Shown here in pieces: positions 9,413 through 26,087 of a DNA stretch of 31,991 bases. Position 1 is the stretch's first letter, and every line of letters begins with the position of its first letter. The notes beneath the pieces are model-generated. The model was not told the DNA's origin, ran no database searches, and saw only the letters and a program-made list of their open reading frames with translations. The translations under genes were made by a program, and so were the position numbers. Where the stretch lies: positions 1-31,991 of IMG/VR virus record IMGVR_UViG_2563366883_000019. One strand, given 5' to 3'. This DNA comes from a virus. Its lineage: Duplodnaviria > Heunggongvirae > Uroviricota > Caudoviricetes.

Positions 9413-11118
9413 CAGTGAGCCATCCAGTGTGTGGTTCTGCGTTTATCCGTTTTCTGTTTTACCCTCACCGGCATTCTGGCGCGCATCTCCTGGGCAATCA
9501 TGTAGCTCATAAGCTGATCATCAAAACAGCCTTCCTGTGCATTCATGGAGCCTTTCGCGTCATAAACGTAGGTGTTCATTTCTGATAATGTGCCCGACCA
9601 GCGGATCCCCGACAGGCCGTTATTCAGCAGCGTTTTCATTCCCTCTGTCAGGACCGGTTTACTCTGGCGGGTTGTCAGCCAGCCAAGACGGGGCGTATCG
9701 TCGTCATATGCCTGGTCAAGGTGCTGTTCGTTGTAGATATAACGCGTCGGATAGAGTTCCCTGAGTTTCAGGATAACGGCATGTCCGTGATTGTTACGCT
9801 CCGGCCCCACAAACGCATTGTTGTACATACGGCAGACCTGCGCAATGAGATGAGCGAAAAGCTCCGCATCGAGATGACCAAACCAGTGAGCCACCTGCTC
9901 ACCATTACTGCATCTGATGATATCCAGCGATGAGCGGTCTCCGTGCTCCAGCCCCTCAGCGGTATCCGCTCCGCATACATACTCTTCATCCGGATCCGGC
10001 AGCTCCCAGACCAGCAGATAATTCATCAGCGTCCGGTGCTGTTCGGCTTTATTCCCGTCACGCAGAGACTGTGCTTTGGTCTTCGTTCCTGTAACCGGTT
10101 CAATGTCATAAACAATCAGCGGTGGCGAACAGAATGACTCTGCCTGCAGCGTGCTTTCCGCACTGAACACCCGTCGTCCTGACGTCAGAAACGCCTCCTG
10201 TGGCGTTGAGGGAAATTCCTGCTTCATTTCCTCACGCTGTTCAGTTTCCTTGCAGATGTACCAGTGTTTCTGCTCATCGGTAAGCGTGATGTTCATTGCT
10301 TTTTCAACCGCAGAAAAATACGCTGTTTTTTCCCGTGACAGCTTAAGTCCGCTTTCCGGCACTCTGGCGCTGTATTTGAGATCCTGCCACCAGGCGTAAA
10401 AATGGAATTTATAATCCTGTGGCGTCAGCGCCAGCCCTGATGCAGTGATTTCCTGTGCCCGGTTACTCATCTCGTAAAAATCGCCACCCACACCTTCAGC
10501 AGTGGATTCATCAAAAATAATGCACTCATCAGAGACGGCATTAAGTGTACCGGTTCGCAGTTCTTTCGCCTTAGCCGGATATTTTGCGCAAATTTTGCCG
10601 TGCTCTGAGATATGCAGGCGCTGCACCGTACCTGAACGGAATGAGGTTGCCACCTGGATACTAGAGCCGTGACCAAACAGGATATAGCCACCGCTGGCTC
10701 CGCTACGACGTTCAACGATGGTGAATGAGGCTCTCAGCCAGTCAGGAAGATGATCAAACGGTACAGCAATTTTGGTGCGGAAAATTTCACTGGCAGCCTG
10801 TTTATCCTGAGCGACAATCCCGCATTTGAGATGCGGTATGAATAATGCCTGGTCGAGAAGATAAATATCAATGGCCGTGGAAAACCCCAGCTGGCGTGCT
10901 TTCAGGATAATATTTTTATTGTGCATGCTCCGGAACAACTGGCGCTGCGCCGGTCGCATTCTGAAGGTGACCAGCTCACCTTTTTCGTTCTGTATCTTGT
11001 AGAGATGATTGAGCCGCCACCAGGGATTGCTCAGTTTAGTCATGATGAACAGACGTTGTTCGGTCCCGGTCATTTCTGACGGTTCATCACATCGCGGTTC
11101 ATTCTTCCGGAATGTCAT
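9412..11118 (-). CDS. terL: Terminase large subunit (568 aa, P22/Terminase_6-like)
   Basis: Deviant Walker A motif KARQLGFST, characteristic of P22-type large terminases; GGGGAG lies 5 nt upstream of the ATG; overlaps the terS 3' end by 20 nt. Confidence 0.9.
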   Translation of the reverse strand: MTFRKNEPRCDEPSEMTGTEQRLFIMTKLSNPWWRLNHLYKIQNEKGELVTFRMRPAQRQLFRSMHNKNIILKARQLGFSTAIDIYLLDQALFIPHLKCGIVAQDKQAASEIFRTKIAVPFDHLPDWLRASFTIVERRSGASGGYILFGHGSSIQVATSFRSGTVQRLHISEHGKICAKYPAKAKELRTGTLNAVSDECIIFDESTAEGVGGDFYEMSNRAQEITASGLALTPQDYKFHFYAWWQDLKYSARVPESGLKLSREKTAYFSAVEKAMNITLTDEQKHWYICKETEQREEMKQEFPSTPQEAFLTSGRRVFSAESTLQAESFCSPPLIVYDIEPVTGTKTKAQSLRDGNKAEQHRTLMNYLLVWELPDPDEEYVCGADTAEGLEHGDRSSLDIIRCSNGEQVAHWFGHLDAELFAHLIAQVCRMYNNAFVGPERNNHGHAVILKLRELYPTRYIYNEQHLDQAYDDDTPRLGWLTTRQSKPVLTEGMKTLLNNGLSGIRWSGTLSEMNTYVYDAKGSMNAQEGCFDDQLMSYMIAQEMRARMPVRVKQKTDKRRTTHWMAH

Positions 11119-11950
11119 CCAGTCTCCCCGAATTACTCATTTCATGCAGCGATGACACGATGTCACTGACAGGCGTAACAACGCCCCGACGCTGGCTGGT
11201 CAGAATATCGGTTTCCGCTCTGAGTTTATCTCTGGCAGCGTTGATTCTTTCCCGGTCAGCACGAAGTTTTGGTGCTGTTTCCGCCAGAACGTCCAGCGTC
11301 AGCAATGAGCGTTCAATTGACTCGATACGGGCAATATTCCGGTCAAGGGCCTGTTCTGCTTTGAGTATTTTGTCGTACAGGGCAACACGGGTTTCCACGT
11401 CAGCCGCCTCTTTCAGGTCGGCGAACATTTTTTTCAGTGTTCCTGTTACTGAAAGTGCGCGGGCACGGGTGAACACCAGTTCATCGAACAGCACCATATC
11501 GGACGCATCATCCATGAGGTTATCTGCCTCAAGATACTTCGCATATCCACGGTGTCTCACGGCGTGGGTGTTACGGTCGCTAAACCGGGCAACGGGGTGA
11601 GGATTGCCCGATCTGCTGTTGCGTTTCGTTTCTGCCGAATTTGCGCAGTTTTTTGCGCATTTTTCATCACTGCCATCATCGCCGTAAGACTCGTCATTAC
11701 TGGACTCGTCATCAGCTCCATGCGCATTTTTTTGTGCGCTTTTTTGAGTGTCAATTTGCGCACTTTTTTGCGCATTTTTCTGCGCACTTTCCTCTGTATT
11801 TTTGGGGGAGTTTTTGCGCAGTTTTATGTACCGACGAGCCGTGCCATAGCAGATATTGTTCTGTCGACACCAGTCCTGAAGTTTTATGCCAGTTCTGGCA
11901 TGTTCGCGTCGGAATGCCTGCTCCAGTTTTTTCCAGTCCAGCTTTGCCAT
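11099..11950 (-). CDS. terS: Terminase small subunit with N-terminal HTH (283 aa)
   Basis: Immediately upstream of and overlapping terL; N-terminal DNA-binding-like segment (NICYGTARRYIKLRK); contains an AQK-type low-complexity repeat encoded by the TGCGCA array. Confidence 0.7.
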   Translation of the reverse strand: MAKLDWKKLEQAFRREHARTGIKLQDWCRQNNICYGTARRYIKLRKNSPKNTEESAQKNAQKSAQIDTQKSAQKNAHGADDESSNDESYGDDGSDEKCAKNCANSAETKRNSRSGNPHPVARFSDRNTHAVRHRGYAKYLEADNLMDDASDMVLFDELVFTRARALSVTGTLKKMFADLKEAADVETRVALYDKILKAEQALDRNIARIESIERSLLTLDVLAETAPKLRADRERINAARDKLRAETDILTSQRRGVVTPVSDIVSSLHEMSNSGRLDDIPEE

Positions 11951-12251
11951 GTCACTTTCTGACGTCCTCTGTTAAAAACTGACGCATAATGACCGCTGTG
12001 ATTTTTCAGAATTCACACAGCAGCGTCTTGTTTGATTGATATTTACACAATATGGTTGTTTTATCCGGTTTCTTCCACCACCGCACCGGACAGGCGGCCA
12101 TGCGGGAAAACGCTCACGTTACCTGAAAACGTGGAAAGCCCGGTGTGCATCGTTTTTGATTATCCCCACACACTCGCGCAGGAGGTCCAGTGTCTGGCTG
12201 AGGTCTCTGTTAATGCGGGAATACTGCGACGATACGGCGCATCAGCAAAAC

Positions 12252-14693: not shown

Positions 14694-16667
14694 TTATGCT
14701 GCTACGGCATTCACACCAACAGTAAGACTTTCAATCAGCACAGGGTAAGTTGCCGCATTTCCGGTAATATCCGTAATTGCCAGCGCGTTGGCCTCAAAGG
14801 CTGCATTCGTCCATCTGGTCAGCGTAAACGGTTTTCCTGCTGCATTATCAAGCACCGGCGTGACGTTCAGCGAGCCACCACCCGGGAAGCGGAAAGTCAG
14901 CGTGTGCCAGTCGTGATCGAACGGACCATAACTACCAAGCCGCTGTGATGTGGTGTTTGCATGATACATCACATTGATGTTTGTTTTATCAGTCTGCAGA
15001 TAGAAGGCCGCAATATAACCCTCCTCTGATTCCGCTCCCGGCCATCCACTACCGCGCCAGTAAATACCCGCAGAATATTGATTTGCAGAAGCATTGAGAG
15101 ATACATCATCGGGGATTTTAAAGCGCAGCGTGATTTCACCGCCGTTATCGAACAGCTCCTTCCCCTTACCGGCATCAATTGCGTGCGATACTTTCCAGGT
15201 CTTTTTCTGTGCAAGACCATTTTCTGGTTTTTCAAGACGAAGGGCTTTTTTACCTGAACCACTGTCACTGACCAGCGTGTTTTTGACATCTGTCAGCGTC
15301 CAGCCCTGCGAAGCCAGAGCGGCATTTTCCGCATTCACATCATAAGCCAGCACTGACTGTATCTTTGTCGGGACAACGGCTTCAGGCTGAGTATCGCCAC
15401 TCTCCTGTGCTGGTTGCGATACGCCTCCGCCTGAAGAAACCGCGGCTTTTGTCACTTTCCCGGAAACAAAATCTGCCACTCTGCCCACATGCAGAAGAAT
15501 GGCTGTTGCCAGACGGTCGGAAATAATTCCGCGACGCGCCCATGAACCAAAGTGGGTTTTACGATCGGATGTTGTCCAGCTCTTCGCATCCGTTCGTCCA
15601 CCGGAACCATAATACCCGATAGCCGGAATATCCGGGTCTTCTGACGGTTCATTGGTCCCGACTTTCTGACCATTGTCATCCATCATAAACGGCACAAAGA
15701 AGATATTTTTACCGGCTTTGGTTTTGTATGCGCCATAGACGGCATCGTATTGCGCTGAATACGTCTCCTTCCAGTAGTACGTCGTGTCACCACAAATCCA
15801 GGGCACCAGAGAAGGAGAAGCACCAGCGCACTGACCGGATACTCCCGCCAGGTCAGAACGGTATTTTTCCACCATGGCATCAAACATGGCGGGCTGACTG
15901 GCGTACGCTCCCTGTTTTAAATCAAACTCGCCCTGCATCCAGACAACACAAAGCAGTATGTTTTTGGGGTTTGCCTTCAGCGCGGCCTGAGTGCGTGTCA
16001 GCAGGTCTTTATACAACGGCTTATCAACGCCCCATCGTTCAGATTTATCCGACGCTCCTGAACTTTCACTGAACGTTCCGTCAGCACCGGCTGTAAACGC
16101 AGAGCCACCACGACAGCACGGCACTAACAAAATACCCGCATTTTCCGGCATAAAGGGCAACAGCTTTTTGGCAATATGCAATCCCTGTCCGACACACCCA
16201 TACTGCTCTGCGCTGGCTTTCGGATGAGAAAAACGGCTCAAATCCTGCACATCATGCAGGCAGTGGTCCGCCGGAATGATGTCGTTATATGCACAGGCCG
16301 CACCACCCGGTGTCACCGTACTGCGACGCGCCAGCTGTTTAATACGCGGGTCCGGACGGTCATATGTCTCCGGCAGCGGCAGGCCTTCACCATACGCCAT
16401 GCCGTTTGACTGTCCGGCCAGCGCAATGACAAAGTAATATTCTGGTTCAACAACAACAGTCCGGGTACCATCTCCCCCCGGTGAAACTACCGGAGAGGTC
16501 ATATCCCCTTCAGCGACTATAGCCTGGATAAATTCAGCACCATAACCCGCGTTTGAGATAATCGGACTACCATAGGGTTGCCAGCCTTCCTTCAGTTTTT
16601 GCGTCAGTTTTCCTGCGAGGTCTGACGGCGATGATGCCCTGACCACGTCATAGTGTTTAAATGCCAT
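14694..16667 (-). CDS. nanS-p: Prophage-encoded sialate O-acetylesterase NanS-p (SGNH/SASA esterase domain plus C-terminal lectin-like region, about 657 aa)
   Basis: ALAGQSNGMAYGEG esterase motif of the NanS/YjhS family; large size and position downstream of the Q/late leader match the nanS-p gene found downstream of stx in EHEC phages. Preferred ATG at 16667 has GGGAGG 4 nt upstream; the ORF track start at 16697 is TTG. Confidence 0.75.
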   Translation of the reverse strand: MAFKHYDVVRASSPSDLAGKLTQKLKEGWQPYGSPIISNAGYGAEFIQAIVAEGDMTSPVVSPGGDGTRTVVVEPEYYFVIALAGQSNGMAYGEGLPLPETYDRPDPRIKQLARRSTVTPGGAACAYNDIIPADHCLHDVQDLSRFSHPKASAEQYGCVGQGLHIAKKLLPFMPENAGILLVPCCRGGSAFTAGADGTFSESSGASDKSERWGVDKPLYKDLLTRTQAALKANPKNILLCVVWMQGEFDLKQGAYASQPAMFDAMVEKYRSDLAGVSGQCAGASPSLVPWICGDTTYYWKETYSAQYDAVYGAYKTKAGKNIFFVPFMMDDNGQKVGTNEPSEDPDIPAIGYYGSGGRTDAKSWTTSDRKTHFGSWARRGIISDRLATAILLHVGRVADFVSGKVTKAAVSSGGGVSQPAQESGDTQPEAVVPTKIQSVLAYDVNAENAALASQGWTLTDVKNTLVSDSGSGKKALRLEKPENGLAQKKTWKVSHAIDAGKGKELFDNGGEITLRFKIPDDVSLNASANQYSAGIYWRGSGWPGAESEEGYIAAFYLQTDKTNINVMYHANTTSQRLGSYGPFDHDWHTLTFRFPGGGSLNVTPVLDNAAGKPFTLTRWTNAAFEANALAITDITGNAATYPVLIESLTVGVNAVAA

Positions 16668-16868
16668 TATTCCTCCCGGCAGGGATAGTGTATGCAATCA
16701 AGATAAGGTGCGGGCTGACGTCAGTCATGGACAAGGGTTCAGAAACAGGAGGATGACTACAGCCCGCAATACGAAAAAGACCATACAGTTGCGCAGAGTG
16801 ATTACTGTCGGGTATTATTCGCCAGCTGAAAATTGATCACTTCACGTTTTGTTGTTTATTCCTTGCCA

Positions 16869-18093: not shown

Positions 18094-18117
18094 CGCATTT
18101 ACAAAAAATATTTTGCA

Positions 18118-18732
18118 TCATCCAGCAATCACTAGAAGTTCTTTCTCCAATTCTCGCTTCATTGCATAAAACATTTCTGAATCAAGGACCCTCTCGCACC
18201 ACACGACCCGCCTCCGGCAATACTGAATATCAACTCCTGTTATCTGAGAAATCATCCTGGCGATATCTTGCGTGCTGTCGCGATTGCAATATCGCCTAAT
18301 AGCTACATCACGGACAGGGCTTTCACGATGAAAGGTCTCAACCATCACACGTTCAACGAAAGCAGCATCATCGGATTCTTTGGCGAGAGCAATGATATTA
18401 CCTGCCGATGACTGAGGGATGACCAGTTCTCGGGCTTTCTGATGGAGTTCATCTCCACGTAGTCCGTCTTCTTCATACAGACGCATGACAACAGACTCAA
18501 TCTGCTTAGCTTTGTCATCGCTCCACTGACTGCGAATCATCAGTCGCCCAATAACGTTAATTGCACCACAAGGAGAATCATCACCAGCGTTAACATTTCC
18601 CCATACCTGTAGCATGTAGTGAACCCATGCTTTCTGACGAGAGTTAATGATTTTCTTCGGATGCCTCCATATGCGGCGGAAATGAGCATCATTAATAAAG
18701 TTAACCATGCCGAATACTGGGGTTAGCCGCAT
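18118..18732 (-). CDS. Putative late antiterminator Q-like protein (about 204 aa)
   Basis: Position after ninH and immediately upstream of a promoter-like element plus terminator; ATG overlaps the stop of the upstream 80-aa ORF (TGATG). Assignment is positional; no motif recognised confidently. Confidence 0.4.
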   Translation of the reverse strand: MRLTPVFGMVNFINDAHFRRIWRHPKKIINSRQKAWVHYMLQVWGNVNAGDDSPCGAINVIGRLMIRSQWSDDKAKQIESVVMRLYEEDGLRGDELHQKARELVIPQSSAGNIIALAKESDDAAFVERVMVETFHRESPVRDVAIRRYCNRDSTQDIARMISQITGVDIQYCRRRVVWCERVLDSEMFYAMKRELEKELLVIAG

Positions 18733-18974
18733 CACAGCCCCCATCCTTTACAATGACACCACACTTCAAACATTCGTTTCACAACTTCACGGCAGTAGAA
18801 ACCGTCAGCATCACGTGTCAGGTCATAGCGATCTCCGTGCTTCAGTCTCATATAGCATTCGAATAATCTGTTCATATACTCTTCGCCATGAACTCCGCTA
18901 TTACGCTGCTCATGCGCTTTTCCAGACGACCTGAATAAAGCCATGCGTTCAGGCACCTGCTGAATATCACGCAT
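18732..18974 (-). CDS. Hypothetical protein at the Q locus (80 aa from internal ATG), Cys/His-containing
   Basis: Begins MRDIQQVPER and starts 8 nt before the ninH stop; the ORF track frame extends to 19079, overlapping ninH. Translationally coupled to the 204-aa ORF. Confidence 0.4.
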   Translation of the reverse strand: MRDIQQVPERMALFRSSGKAHEQRNSGVHGEEYMNRLFECYMRLKHGDRYDLTRDADGFYCREVVKRMFEVWCHCKGWGL

Positions 18975-19167
18975 CAGTAGCTTTCCCCTTATCCCATCCA
19001 CGATGAACCATAAGGACACCGTTGACGACGGCGTGCCGTTTGCCTTCTTTATCACCGACATATTTTCTGACCGTAGCACGATTACAGTTCAGTTTTCGTG
19101 AAACTTCAGTCATATTGCCTCGTGCCTGGATAAGCAATTCCGGTATTGTTTGAATTGTGGCGTTCAT
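18967..19167 (-). CDS. ninH: NinH (66 aa)
   Basis: Matches lambda NinH motifs (TIPELLIQARGNMTEVSRKLNCNRATVRKYV, HAVVNGVLMVHRGW). Confidence 0.85.
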   Translation of the reverse strand: MNATIQTIPELLIQARGNMTEVSRKLNCNRATVRKYVGDKEGKRHAVVNGVLMVHRGWDKGKATDA

Positions 19168-19526
19168 ATGTTCTCCAGTTCGGTGATTTTTATCCCCACT
19201 CTACCGCCAAGCACTTTCACGCCGCGAATTACGCGAATGTCATCGAATTGCACGTCGTCTTCCGCAAATCCGGCGTGGATAAGAGAGTCGAGTAAACCTT
19301 TCAGGATGTTATCGAGGTCGCGACGGCGGGAATCTGGTGGTTCAGCAATAATTGTGATGCGAAGTCGTGATTTAGTGAAAATGTCTAATCTGAGTTGCCG
19401 GATGATTTGCTGTACGTCTTTTCGGTATTTCTGGCCTTTATCGCTGATGTAGTACTGGCTTCCCCGTCTTCGCCAGTAGGTATTCACCGTCGGCGGCCAG
19501 GGAAGCACAAACTCATATTCATTCAT
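19164..19526 (-). CDS. rusA: Holliday junction resolvase RusA (120 aa)
   Basis: RusA signature LPWPP..N.YWR...ISDKGQKYR and catalytic region DSRRRDLDNILKGLLDSL. Confidence 0.9.
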   Translation of the reverse strand: MNEYEFVLPWPPTVNTYWRRRGSQYYISDKGQKYRKDVQQIIRQLRLDIFTKSRLRITIIAEPPDSRRRDLDNILKGLLDSLIHAGFAEDDVQFDDIRVIRGVKVLGGRVGIKITELENI

Positions 19527-19816
19527 GACTTAATCTTCCCCTCCTTCAGCAATATCGCCAGCGTCCTGATCACGCCTTCCAGGTGGTAAAGTCTGGCGTC
19601 GTTGTTGTCGAGAATGCGAGTACGGCGATCGATTTCATTATGGCAGTCACTACAGGCCCATGCAGCCAACAGATCATCTGGCTTTGTTCCCGTTCCGCAA
19701 ATTCCAGCCATTCGGTAATGCGCCAGAACTGTAGTTTCAGGGTTGCCATTGCATACGCCATAAATCCGTACCTGGCATTCTCTGCCGCGCGCTTCTTTGC
19801 GTAGGTTTGTCATCAT
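19523..19816 (-). CDS. ybcO: YbcO-like DUF1364 putative nuclease (about 97 aa)
   Basis: RKEARGRECQVRIYGVCNGNPETTVLAHY...CSDCHNEID matches DLP12 YbcO; preferred ATG at 19816 has GAGGA about 6 nt upstream (the ORF track frame starts at 19852). Confidence 0.8.
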   Translation of the reverse strand: MMTNLRKEARGRECQVRIYGVCNGNPETTVLAHYRMAGICGTGTKPDDLLAAWACSDCHNEIDRRTRILDNNDARLYHLEGVIRTLAILLKEGKIKS

Positions 19817-19836
19817 CTTATTCCTCATGCAGTAGG

Positions 19837-20028
19837 CTATCCGGAGTGACAATTAAATCTTGCTCGACGCCTTAGCCACCGGATATCCCACAGGTGAGCC
19901 GTATAGTTGAAGGTTTTAACATCAGATTCTTTGGGGACTGGCCTGGGTTTATTTCGGGAGCGTTTGGTTGGAAGGTAATTGCAGTTTTCACAGACGATAT
20001 CGGTGATGCTTCGTCGCTGTCGTCTCAT
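19837..20028 (-). CDS. ninE: NinE-like protein (63 aa)
   Basis: [27 protein letters not shown]...[15 protein letters not shown] resembles lambdoid NinE; position between ninB and ybcO matches the DLP12 nin order. Confidence 0.65.
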
Positions 20029-25389: not shown

Positions 25390-25665
25390 GTGGCTTCTGT
25401 TTCTATCAGCTGTCCCTCCTGTTCAGCTACTGACGGGGTGGTGCGTAACGGCAAAAGCACCGCCGGACATCAGCGCTATCTCTGCTCTCACTGCCGTAAA
25501 ACATGGCAACTGCAGTTCACTTACACCGCTTCTCAACCCGGTACGCACCAGAAAATCATTGATATGGCCATGAATGGCGTTGGATGCCGGGCAACTGCCC
25601 GCATTATGGGCGTTGGCCTCAACACGATTTTACGTCACTTAAAAAACTCAGGCCGCAGTCGGTAA
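25390..25665 (+). CDS. insA: IS1 InsA (91 aa, GTG start)
   Basis: Identical in recognisable motifs to IS1 InsA ([43 protein letters not shown]...). Confidence 0.95.
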
Positions 25666-26087
25666 CCTCGCGCATACAGCCGGGCAGTGACGTCATCGTC
25701 TGCGCGGAAATGGACGAACAGTGGGGCTATGTCGGGGCTAAATCGCGCCAGCGCTGGCTGTTTTACGCGTATGACAGTCTCCGGAAGACGGTTGTTGCGC
25801 ACGTATTCGGTGAACGCACTATGGCGACGCTGGGGCGTCTTATGAGCCTGCTGTCACCCTTTGACGTGGTGATATGGATGACGGATGGCTGGCCGCTGTA
25901 TGAATCCCGCCTGAAGGGAAAGCTGCACGTAATCAGCAAGCGATATACGCAGCGAATTGAGCGGCATAACCTGAATCTGAGGCAGCACCTGGCACGGCTG
26001 GGACGGAAGTCGCTGTCGTTCTCAAAATCGGTGGAGCTGCATGACAAAGTCATCGGGCATTATCTGAACATAAAACACTATCAATAA
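25584..26087 (+). CDS. insB: IS1 InsB frame (expressed as InsAB' transposase by -1 frameshift)
   Basis: InsB motifs ([21 protein letters not shown]...[13 protein letters not shown]); TTAAAAAACTC slippery site at about 25640. Confidence 0.95.

Follow-up and report, generated by a model that had tools for sequence, protein, structure and literature searches.

A hexamer array inside the small-terminase gene of a 933W-like prophage is its probable pac site

Why is the gene for the small terminase subunit (terS) of a tailed phage studded, over 179 bp, with copies of a single palindromic hexamer, TGCGCA? The gene lies in IMG/VR record IMGVR_UViG_2563366883_000019 (positions 1 to 31,991, the whole stretch of DNA analysed here, called the window), whose source is a 933W-like prophage. 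An earlier note on this DNA had proposed the array as a candidate pac site, to be recognized by the terminase. Our comparisons strongly support that proposal, through conservation of the hexamer as DNA in three reading frames, co-variation of the array with the helix-turn-helix (HTH) of TerS over at least six specificity classes and a layout that matches the pac site of phage P1. On these sequence grounds we put at roughly 0.8 the probability that the TGCGCA copies are cognate TerS-binding sites that together form a headful pac site.

A TGCGCA array inside terS

Seven exact copies of TGCGCA lie within 11642-11820 of the window (Table 1), at gene nucleotides (nt) 131; 165, 177, 189 and 225; and 292 and 304 of the coding strand. 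The whole window holds 16 copies, so that 7/16 fall in the array; the other nine are isolated, and terS outside gene nt 131-309 has none. Dinucleotide-preserving shuffles give an expectation of 13.56 copies per window, or 0.076 per 179 bp, and the Poisson probability of at least seven copies in 179 bp is 2.7e-12. A scan of all hexamers found the TGCGCA array to be the densest 180-bp hexamer cluster of the window. The next-densest clusters, of GGGCCA and CGGACC around 1550-1800, come from collagen-like repeats in a tail-fibre gene (599-2716).

The earlier note had counted at least eight copies in about 180 bp, followed by a run of four to seven T and several spaced by about 12 bp, or one helical turn. 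This description holds in outline and needs correcting in detail. Seven copies are exact, and the one at 11735-11740 carries one mismatch, reading TGCGCt on the + strand and AGCGCA on the coding strand. T-runs do follow the copies on the + strand, ranging from T3 to T7 and in places with one other base between. Counting the mismatched copy, three spacings are 12 bp and the others are 14, 22, 34 and 67 bp; across the class-A genes compared (defined below), adjacent copies stand 9-14 bp or 18-24 bp apart, which is not strictly one turn. Tandem Repeats Finder (TRF) detected period-12 arrays at 11640-11664 and 11755-11790. The low-complexity AQK-type segment that the note had described in the peptide encoded by the array is present as well (...SAQKNAQKSAQIDTQKSAQKNAH...KCAKNCAN).

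The copies form two blocks separated by a spacer that encodes the acidic stretch GADDESSNDESYGDDGSDEK. In the upstream block the hexamer is read as xTG-CGC-A, giving L-R-K, or as xxT-GCG-CAx, giving A-Q or A-H, and the mismatched copy as AGC-GCA; in the downstream block it gives C-A. The window alone thus uses three frames. Mechanically called open reading frames (ORFs) of 76-136 amino acids (aa) overlap the array in other frames (11552-11982 on the + strand and 11557-11787 on the - strand, for example MRRKMRKKVRK...); the composition of the repeats accounts for them, and they show no sign of being genes.

Selection acts on the DNA rather than on the peptide

The earlier note had suggested comparing array and protein conservation among related terS genes. 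Distant homologues were gathered by a large protein search followed by contig look-ups; a scan of species-representative genomes, in which the peptide patterns were narrow, yielded only two Citrobacter loci. Homologues of 43-65% protein identity, from Citrobacter, Serratia, Dickeya, Yersinia and other contigs, keep four to seven TGCGCA at the same place, with diverged flanks. Counts for the three reading frames over 14 distinct class-A genes are 45, 16 and 16; the hexamer is found in the first 340 nt of terS, and the ~500 nt that follow have 0-1 copies.

Codon choice points the same way. In 13 class-A genes, 43/49 A-Q or A-H dipeptides in the predicted linker of TerS are encoded as nnT-GCG-CAn, compared with 0/11 elsewhere in terS; codon usage in the rest of the genes leads one to expect about 5% (23.6% GCG for Ala multiplied by 22.5% T at third positions). 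The residue preceding Ala varies (N, S, D, T or A), yet the last base of its codon is T. Together, this synonymous fixation, the use of three frames and the persistence of the hexamer down to 43% protein identity demonstrate that selection acts on the DNA.

The array motif co-varies with the helix-turn-helix

We then assigned a motif to each gene by an unbiased count of its most frequent non-low-complexity hexamer; the lineages compared are not phylogenetically independent, and at least five motif switches are seen among them. TerS proteins with [ST]ARR[YH]IK in the HTH (class A; the window, Citrobacter, Serratia, Dickeya and Yersinia) go with 4-7 copies of TGCGCA, and those with NTARTRIK (class B; Shiga-toxin (Stx) phages including 933W) with 4-5 copies of GATCAT. 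A Salmonella lineage with NTARTQIK in a domain that is otherwise class-A-like has 3 or 5 copies of [TC]GATCA, and Pectobacterium, with SSAKRYITIK, has TTCGCA in two frames. An unrelated N-terminal domain (MNQSEEESLKRDYCAGV...) accompanies GGTACG (three copies plus two in reverse complement) in a Logan SRA contig and GGTGCG (two plus three in reverse complement) in Salmonella enterica; in this pair the same base is changed in all five copies, and the protein changes alongside. A further unrelated domain (MDMEALKSDYCAGV...), from Salmonella, accompanies TCCGTC in forward orientation and then GACGGA.

The C-terminal two thirds of the window terS is ~91% identical to that of the short-tailed Stx phages of Sepvirinae, and the N-terminal domain reads GITLLDWCRKKKINYNTARTRIKMGK in Stx phages versus GIKLQDWCRQNNICYGTARRYIKLRK in the window. 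Exactly at the position of the TGCGCA block, Stx-phage terS carries its GATCAT units, spaced by 12 bp. The IMG/VR loci divide without exception: class B has 4-5 GATCA and 1-2 TGCGCA, class A 4-7 TGCGCA and 0-1 GATCA. The C-terminal domain is nearly identical among TerS proteins with differing N-terminal modules, and the large subunit (TerL) beside every TerS class belongs to the same family (66-99% identity). The unit exchanged is the DNA-binding domain plus its array, as a cassette.

A motif that switches with the HTH is what a cognate binding site of TerS would show, and this pattern is hard to explain otherwise. The earlier note had named related terS genes that lack the array as evidence that would speak against its proposal. 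Stx phages, from which most of it is missing, are, literally, such relatives; yet they pair a different array with a different recognition helix, and this pairing turns the observation into support.

Several features of the relatives deserve mention in their own right. In Stx loci (L003:1501-2307, L091:4776-5582, which is the 933W terS, and ~40 others) the GATCAT units, which are Dam sites, encode IDHE, IDHK or TDHE, and at the protein level the number of D-H units varies (1, 2, 5 and 7 in P0103, P0067, P0093 and P0041). By analogy with P1, this suggests Dam-controlled packaging in Stx phages; 933W-like phages encode a Dam methylase of their own. In the TerS variants with unrelated N-terminal domains (L083:1501-2316, L088:301-1098, L084:1501-2334 and L089:301-1134) the motifs are non-palindromic, and a block of forward copies precedes one of reverse complements (GGTACG/GTACC, GGTGCG/CGCACC and TCCGTC/GACGGA); such a layout may point to a complex of two-fold symmetry at pac. 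The terS of PhiR5_2 (L002:1501-2307) joins an Stx-type N-terminal cassette to the window-type middle segment NSRSGNPHPVARFSD, where TL-2011c has IRGSRLLPPSNAFSQ, and marks a second mosaic junction at gene nt ~330-375. In IMG/VR contigs L072, L073, L074 and L075 terS is truncated at 390-444 nt; relatives with a truncated terS or a mutated array are possibly decaying prophages.

The layout parallels the pac site of phage P1

The pac site of P1 occupies 161 bp inside pacA and consists of HEX4, a site for integration host factor (IHF), the cleavage site and HEX3 (PMC10028697). In pacA of the annotated P1 genome the TGATCA/G hexamers stand at nt 194, 201, 213 and 228 and at 324, 336 and 347, with one more at 375; pac cleavage has been mapped to nt 276-285, after the four-hexamer block and before the three-hexamer block. 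The frames of the hexamers are mixed (M-I-I, I-D-H, N-D-Q, G-D-H, N-D-R, D-D-H and V-I-T). In P1 as in the window, then, hexamers cluster in the gene of the small terminase, immediately past the codons of the N-terminal HTH, are read in mixed frames and fall into two blocks with a spacer between them (4+3 in P1, 5-6+2 in the window, with spacers of ~90 and 61 bp, respectively). Both hexamers are palindromes of the form TG-NN-CA, and the P1 core GATCA recurs in the Stx-phage and Salmonella relatives of the window terS.

The two proteins also resemble each other at the DNA-binding end. Their HTH domains share a TARRY motif, and hhalign aligned aa 6-48 of the TerS profile with PacA 3-45, weakly (E 2.3e-4, probability 44%). 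PHROG matches were reciprocal: window TerS hit phrog_1711, the PacA family, with E 1.6e-4, and PacA hit phrog_370, the family of the window TerS, with E 1.9e-4. PacA aa 7-45 gave sub-threshold Pfam HTH matches. Homology of the two HTH domains is thus weakly indicated, reciprocal and colinear. Beyond about the first 100 residues the window TerS, unlike its DNA-binding end, is unrelated to PacA. A candidate recognition rule emerges from the comparison, in which Asn before T-A-R would go with GATC, seen in three lineages only (P1, Stx phages and a Salmonella lineage).

TerS anatomy and a model for packaging initiation

An AlphaFold2 model of the TerS monomer, built from 46 homologues and with a low overall predicted template modelling score (0.35), divides the protein into three parts (Table 1): an N-terminal HTH domain of three helices, a linker predicted to be disordered and, at the C-terminal end, a domain of long helices. 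The putative recognition helix is aa 35-41, YGTARRY. A Foldseek search of the model against the PDB returned nothing more specific than hairpins of long helices, all with E above 0.001, and thus no solved relative. With an N-terminal HTH joined by this linker to a long helical hairpin, and a gene adjoining terL, the predicted architecture is that of a small terminase subunit. We presume that the C-terminal domain serves in oligomerization and interaction with TerL.

The coding region of the linker hosts the whole array except its first copy (11815-11820, gene nt 131-136), which straddles the linker's upstream edge. The linker peptide is poorly conserved save for the residues encoded by the hexamers; C102-A103 (TGC-GCA) is invariant in an eight-sequence alignment. 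The array can sit inside the gene because a disordered linker tolerates any peptide that the DNA motif imposes, and the conflict between protein and DNA constraints is therefore relaxed.

From sequence comparison we infer the following model of TerS binding, oligomer geometry, cut position and packaging direction. TerS would form an oligomer through its C-terminal long-helix domain, and several tethered HTH domains of one oligomer would each engage one TGCGCA. Given a spacing of 9-14 bp or twice that, the hexamers would all face roughly the same side of the helix. Many weak contacts at a site unique in the genome would provide the specificity; since the array holds many sites and the other nine copies in the window are isolated, it could serve as a unique address. 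The bound TerS would position the nuclease of a T4-gp17-like TerL for the first cut, which by analogy with P1 would fall between the 5-6-copy and 2-copy blocks, and headful packaging would proceed from that end. We place this initiating cut in the 61-bp spacer only tentatively, at somewhat less than even odds.

Alternative explanations

The hexamers might bind TerS or another protein for regulation, as in autoregulation of the terminase or a roadblock in the late operon, and not for the initiation of packaging. Co-variation marks the TerS HTH as the reader and is silent on what binding achieves, and the pac region of SPP1 overlaps promoters, with a gene-regulation role proposed (PMC4737164). 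However, transcription of the late operon comes from far upstream, with the array 130-310 nt into a coding sequence, and the single promoter-like match within it (minus strand, 11754-11726) is within chance (0.6 expected). With pac recognition being the defining task of TerS, and the only experimentally characterized array of such build, that of P1, being pac itself, we regard a purely regulatory role as unlikely.

A second possibility places the repeat at the level of the peptide, with a 12-bp unit expanded by replication slippage, a flexible Lys/Gln-rich linker as the part that matters, if any does, and a DNA motif without a function of its own. TRF does report period-12 tandem units, the array segment is predicted to be disordered, and close relatives differ by 12-bp steps (four, five or more GATCAT; three versus five GATCA; AQK units lost in GER2), so that slippage clearly changes array copy number. 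This explanation does not account for one hexamer in three frames encoding unrelated peptides, for synonymous positions fixed in 43/49 cases against the ~5% expected, for survival of the hexamer between diverged flanks at 43% protein identity, or for a motif that switches along with the HTH. The use of three frames already largely refutes it, and we consider it very unlikely.

We give still less credence to the hexamers being stacked intrinsic terminators of antisense (+ strand) transcription, in which neighbouring copies would pair as 6-7-bp G+C-rich stems followed by U-runs. A consensus scan found six terminator-like sites on the + strand within 11642-11810 compared with 0.9 expected, and the + strand RNA folds better than shuffled sequences (z -2.4 and -3.8). 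The stems are short, however, no downstream antisense promoter is known, and the non-palindromic classes (TTCGCA, GGTACG and TCCGTC) and the T-run-free TGCGCA arrays of Serratia and Dickeya cannot form terminators, yet keep their arrays. The pattern arises of itself from palindromic hexamers at 12-bp intervals and from the A-runs of the coding strand; the hairpins are probably a by-product of the array, one that could stop antisense transcription.

It is just as improbable that the hexamers arose as neutral by-products of mosaic recombination or serve to facilitate it, as short sequences shared at the module boundary of N-terminal cassettes: the boundary between class-A and Stx-type modules does adjoin the conserved downstream TGCGCA pair, and PhiR5_2 has a further mosaic junction, but recombination needs one shared stretch rather than four to seven phased copies kept over deep divergence, and it leaves the motif difference between would-be partners unexplained.

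Three further ideas about the array were considered and not retained. Curvature of A-tracts as the conserved signal was set aside, as A/T runs are missing from the arrays of Serratia and Dickeya, which retain TGCGCA. Programmed frameshifting or transcriptional slippage on the A-runs seems unlikely, the A AAA AAG-like runs being off the canonical frame and other classes having no A-runs. The sequence at the mismatched copy, AAAGCGCA, may resemble the Ada box, a reading that we do not favour given the co-variation with the HTH. PHROG scans of 20 of the larger ORFs of the window, itself only part of a prophage, detected no phage methyltransferase that could act on GCGC.

Returning to the array as a pac site, a number of observations weigh against this interpretation or against parts of it. 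Stx-phage terS retains one or two downstream TGCGCA without the class-A helix, so that some copies at least can be relics, and a Pectobacterium example (L087:301-1170) has a decayed array in which most copies are mutated. In Serratia and Dickeya the array is a single contiguous block, and a two-block layout is thus not universal. The parallel with P1 has its own gaps. The homology with the PacA HTH is weak (hhalign probability 44%), the T4-gp17-like TerL gave no significant alignment with PacB by BLASTP, and TGCGCA, unlike the P1 hexamer, contains no GATC and is therefore presumably free of Dam or methylation control. The IHF consensus WATCAANNNNTTR had no match with up to one mismatch in gene nt 100-340, where it should be noted that the annotated site of P1 is itself imperfect. 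The low specificity of SF6/SPP1 TerS (PMC4737164) and the reading of DNA through a tunnel in HK97 (PMC11331095) mean that a wrap-around geometry is not assured. Our literature searches, which may miss work in subscription journals, found no described pac site for 933W or other Stx phages.

Genomic context and the terminase

Directly upstream of terL, terS overlaps it by 20 nt; the portal and major head genes follow downstream of terL, and Rz/Rz1, lysozyme, holin and the Q antiterminator lie upstream of terS. At the DNA level terS is 100% identical to that of phage PhiR12_3, accession PV340552, on which a literature search found nothing relevant.

Table 1 Features of the terS-terL locus and of the hexamer array (window coordinates)
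Feature	Position	Strand	Gene or protein range	Description
terS, small terminase subunit	11099..11950	-	283 aa	Full-length match to phrog_370 'terminase small subunit', E 7e-118
terL, large terminase subunit	9412..11118	-	568 aa	Matches phrog_2 and other terminase families
N-terminal three-helix HTH domain (predicted)	11828..11935	-	aa 6-41	AlphaFold2 helices 6-20, 24-30 and 35-41; predicted local distance difference test (pLDDT) ~87-90
Disordered linker (predicted)	11579..11815	-	aa 46-124	AlphaFold2 pLDDT <50
C-terminal long-helix domain (predicted)	11138..11578	-	aa 125-271	AlphaFold2 helices 125-138, 145-181, 185-253 and 260-271; pLDDT up to 95
Upstream hexamer block	11721..11820		gene nt 131-230	Five exact TGCGCA (11815-11820, 11781-11786, 11769-11774, 11757-11762, 11721-11726) and variant AGCGCA (11735-11740)
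Spacer between blocks	11660..11720		gene nt 231-291	61 bp; encodes an acidic stretch
Downstream hexamer block	11642..11659			Two TGCGCA 12 bp apart (11654-11659, 11642-11647); frame TGC-GCA (Cys-Ala)

The earlier note had called the terminase P22-type, which our searches do not bear out. Among solved structures (PDB sequence search, E<=1) TerL matched only gp17 of T4 and RB49 (E 3.7e-8 to 0.015), and the DNA-binding end of TerS resembles P1 PacA. The TerS profile had no informative relative among PDB sequences at E<=10, neither P22 gp3 nor Sf6 gp1; neither subunit matched Pfam, and NCBIfam gave nothing useful. The headful mode that the note had attached to this type is still likely. TerL is 96% identical to that of 933W, a generalized transducer for which terminal redundancy has been inferred (PMC3752737), and headful packaging is plausible because TerL resembles T4 gp17 and because the phage with the 96%-identical TerL behaves in this way. 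The depositors of PhiR5_2 annotated its TerL as 'T4-like headful'. We presume that TerL is the nuclease and motor recruited by TerS.

Elsewhere in the window, a 667-aa phrog_143 protein (14694-16697) is encoded between the Q antiterminator gene (18118-18744) and the lysis genes. At the matching position in 933W, between stx and the lysis genes, stands an ORF annotated as a SASA-family carbohydrate esterase. No tRNA or stx genes were detected between the Q antiterminator and lysis genes of the window in the parts covered (14694-16700 and 18100-18744). A possible remnant of an insertion sequence lies in the early region: a 167-aa ORF (25584-26087) with a match to the transposase family phrog_720 (E 4e-79), flanked by the gene of a DNA-binding protein on one side and by the exonuclease and Bet recombination genes on the other. 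An HNH endonuclease gene (19523-19852) lies directly upstream of a RusA-like resolvase gene (19164-19526), with a 4-nt overlap.

Implications

How ring-shaped small terminases select pac DNA is still argued, and P1 has stood rather alone as the one clear case of a pac site made of a hexamer array. 933W-like Shiga-toxin phages and their relatives now show the same build in their terminase family. Our literature searches found no description of such HTH and array cassettes in this family, with the same proviso about subscription journals. We think it nearly an even bet that this terminase family comprises natural, interchangeable specificity cassettes, each an HTH with its own array in the linker, at least six of which (TGCGCA, GATCA, TTCGCA, GGTACG, GGTGCG and TCCGTC) would serve one conserved TerL.

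Were this so, TerS would read pac base-specifically from the outside of the oligomer, one hexamer per HTH, and a simple recognition code would link residues of the helix to the hexamer. The natural versions, in which the helix and all the DNA words change together, would form a series from which the rules of recognition could be worked out. Cassette swaps would give related prophages mutually orthogonal packaging, which would avoid cross-packaging among co-resident Stx-type prophages as well as hijacking by satellites. A split in control is also suggested, between Dam-dependent (GATCA) and Dam-independent (TGCGCA) packaging. If the array is pac, one can predict the starting point of packaging in Stx-type prophages, and with it that of generalized or lateral transduction, as well as which co-resident prophages could or could not cross-package. 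It would further offer compact orthogonal pac cassettes for phage-based DNA delivery.

Comparison with known packaging systems

In lambda, whose cosB lies outside the terminase gene, three 16-bp R-elements and an IHF site serve a cos system with precise nicking and termination. The N-terminal winged HTH of gpNu1 reads the R-elements near the cut, with the DNA bent between them. The window would share with lambda the principle of repeated short elements that adjoin the cut and are read by an N-terminal HTH of the small subunit; lambda differs in being a cos system with its repeats outside the gene. Cos phages are summarized in PMC4737164.

The candidate pac site of the window is embedded in the small-terminase gene, as are those of P22 and Sf6. 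Sf6 is a headful enterobacterial phage whose pac lies in gene 1, the small-terminase gene, and the P22 pac is described as a single short asymmetric sequence rather than a hexamer array. P22, also a headful enterobacterial phage, has its pac inside the small-terminase gene 3 (PMC10996546). The terminase of the window showed no P22/Sf6-type match for TerL in the PDB search and none to gp3 or gp1 for TerS.

In HK97, TerS provides a sequence-specific recognition that licenses cleavage by TerL; the site is single, the DNA is threaded through the central tunnel of the ring and TerS reads it by its N- and C-terminal arms (PMC11331095). The window TerS would likewise give sequence-specific recognition, the difference being that HK97 has no HTH array. 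A multi-copy phased array fits reading from outside the ring better than it fits the HK97 mode.

The pac site of SPP1/SF6 consists of sets of direct repeats (pacL/pacR) overlapping the start of terS and is bound by the ring of the TerS protein G1P, whose N-terminal HTH domains sit on flexible tethers and are proposed to make many weak cooperative contacts (PMC4737164). Repeats in a pac region at terS and an HTH-on-tether plan would be common to these phages and the window. The DNA-binding domain of SF6/SPP1 has little sequence specificity, and its recognition has been attributed to intrinsically bent DNA (PMC4737164), whereas the window array is a sharply defined, conserved hexamer that co-varies with the recognition helix; no sequence similarity was detected. 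This conservation and co-variation favour base-specific reading in the window terminase.

This kind of element is known from P1; the window would carry a variant of it, with a different, non-methylatable hexamer and a different terminase partner, in a family with natural switches of specificity.

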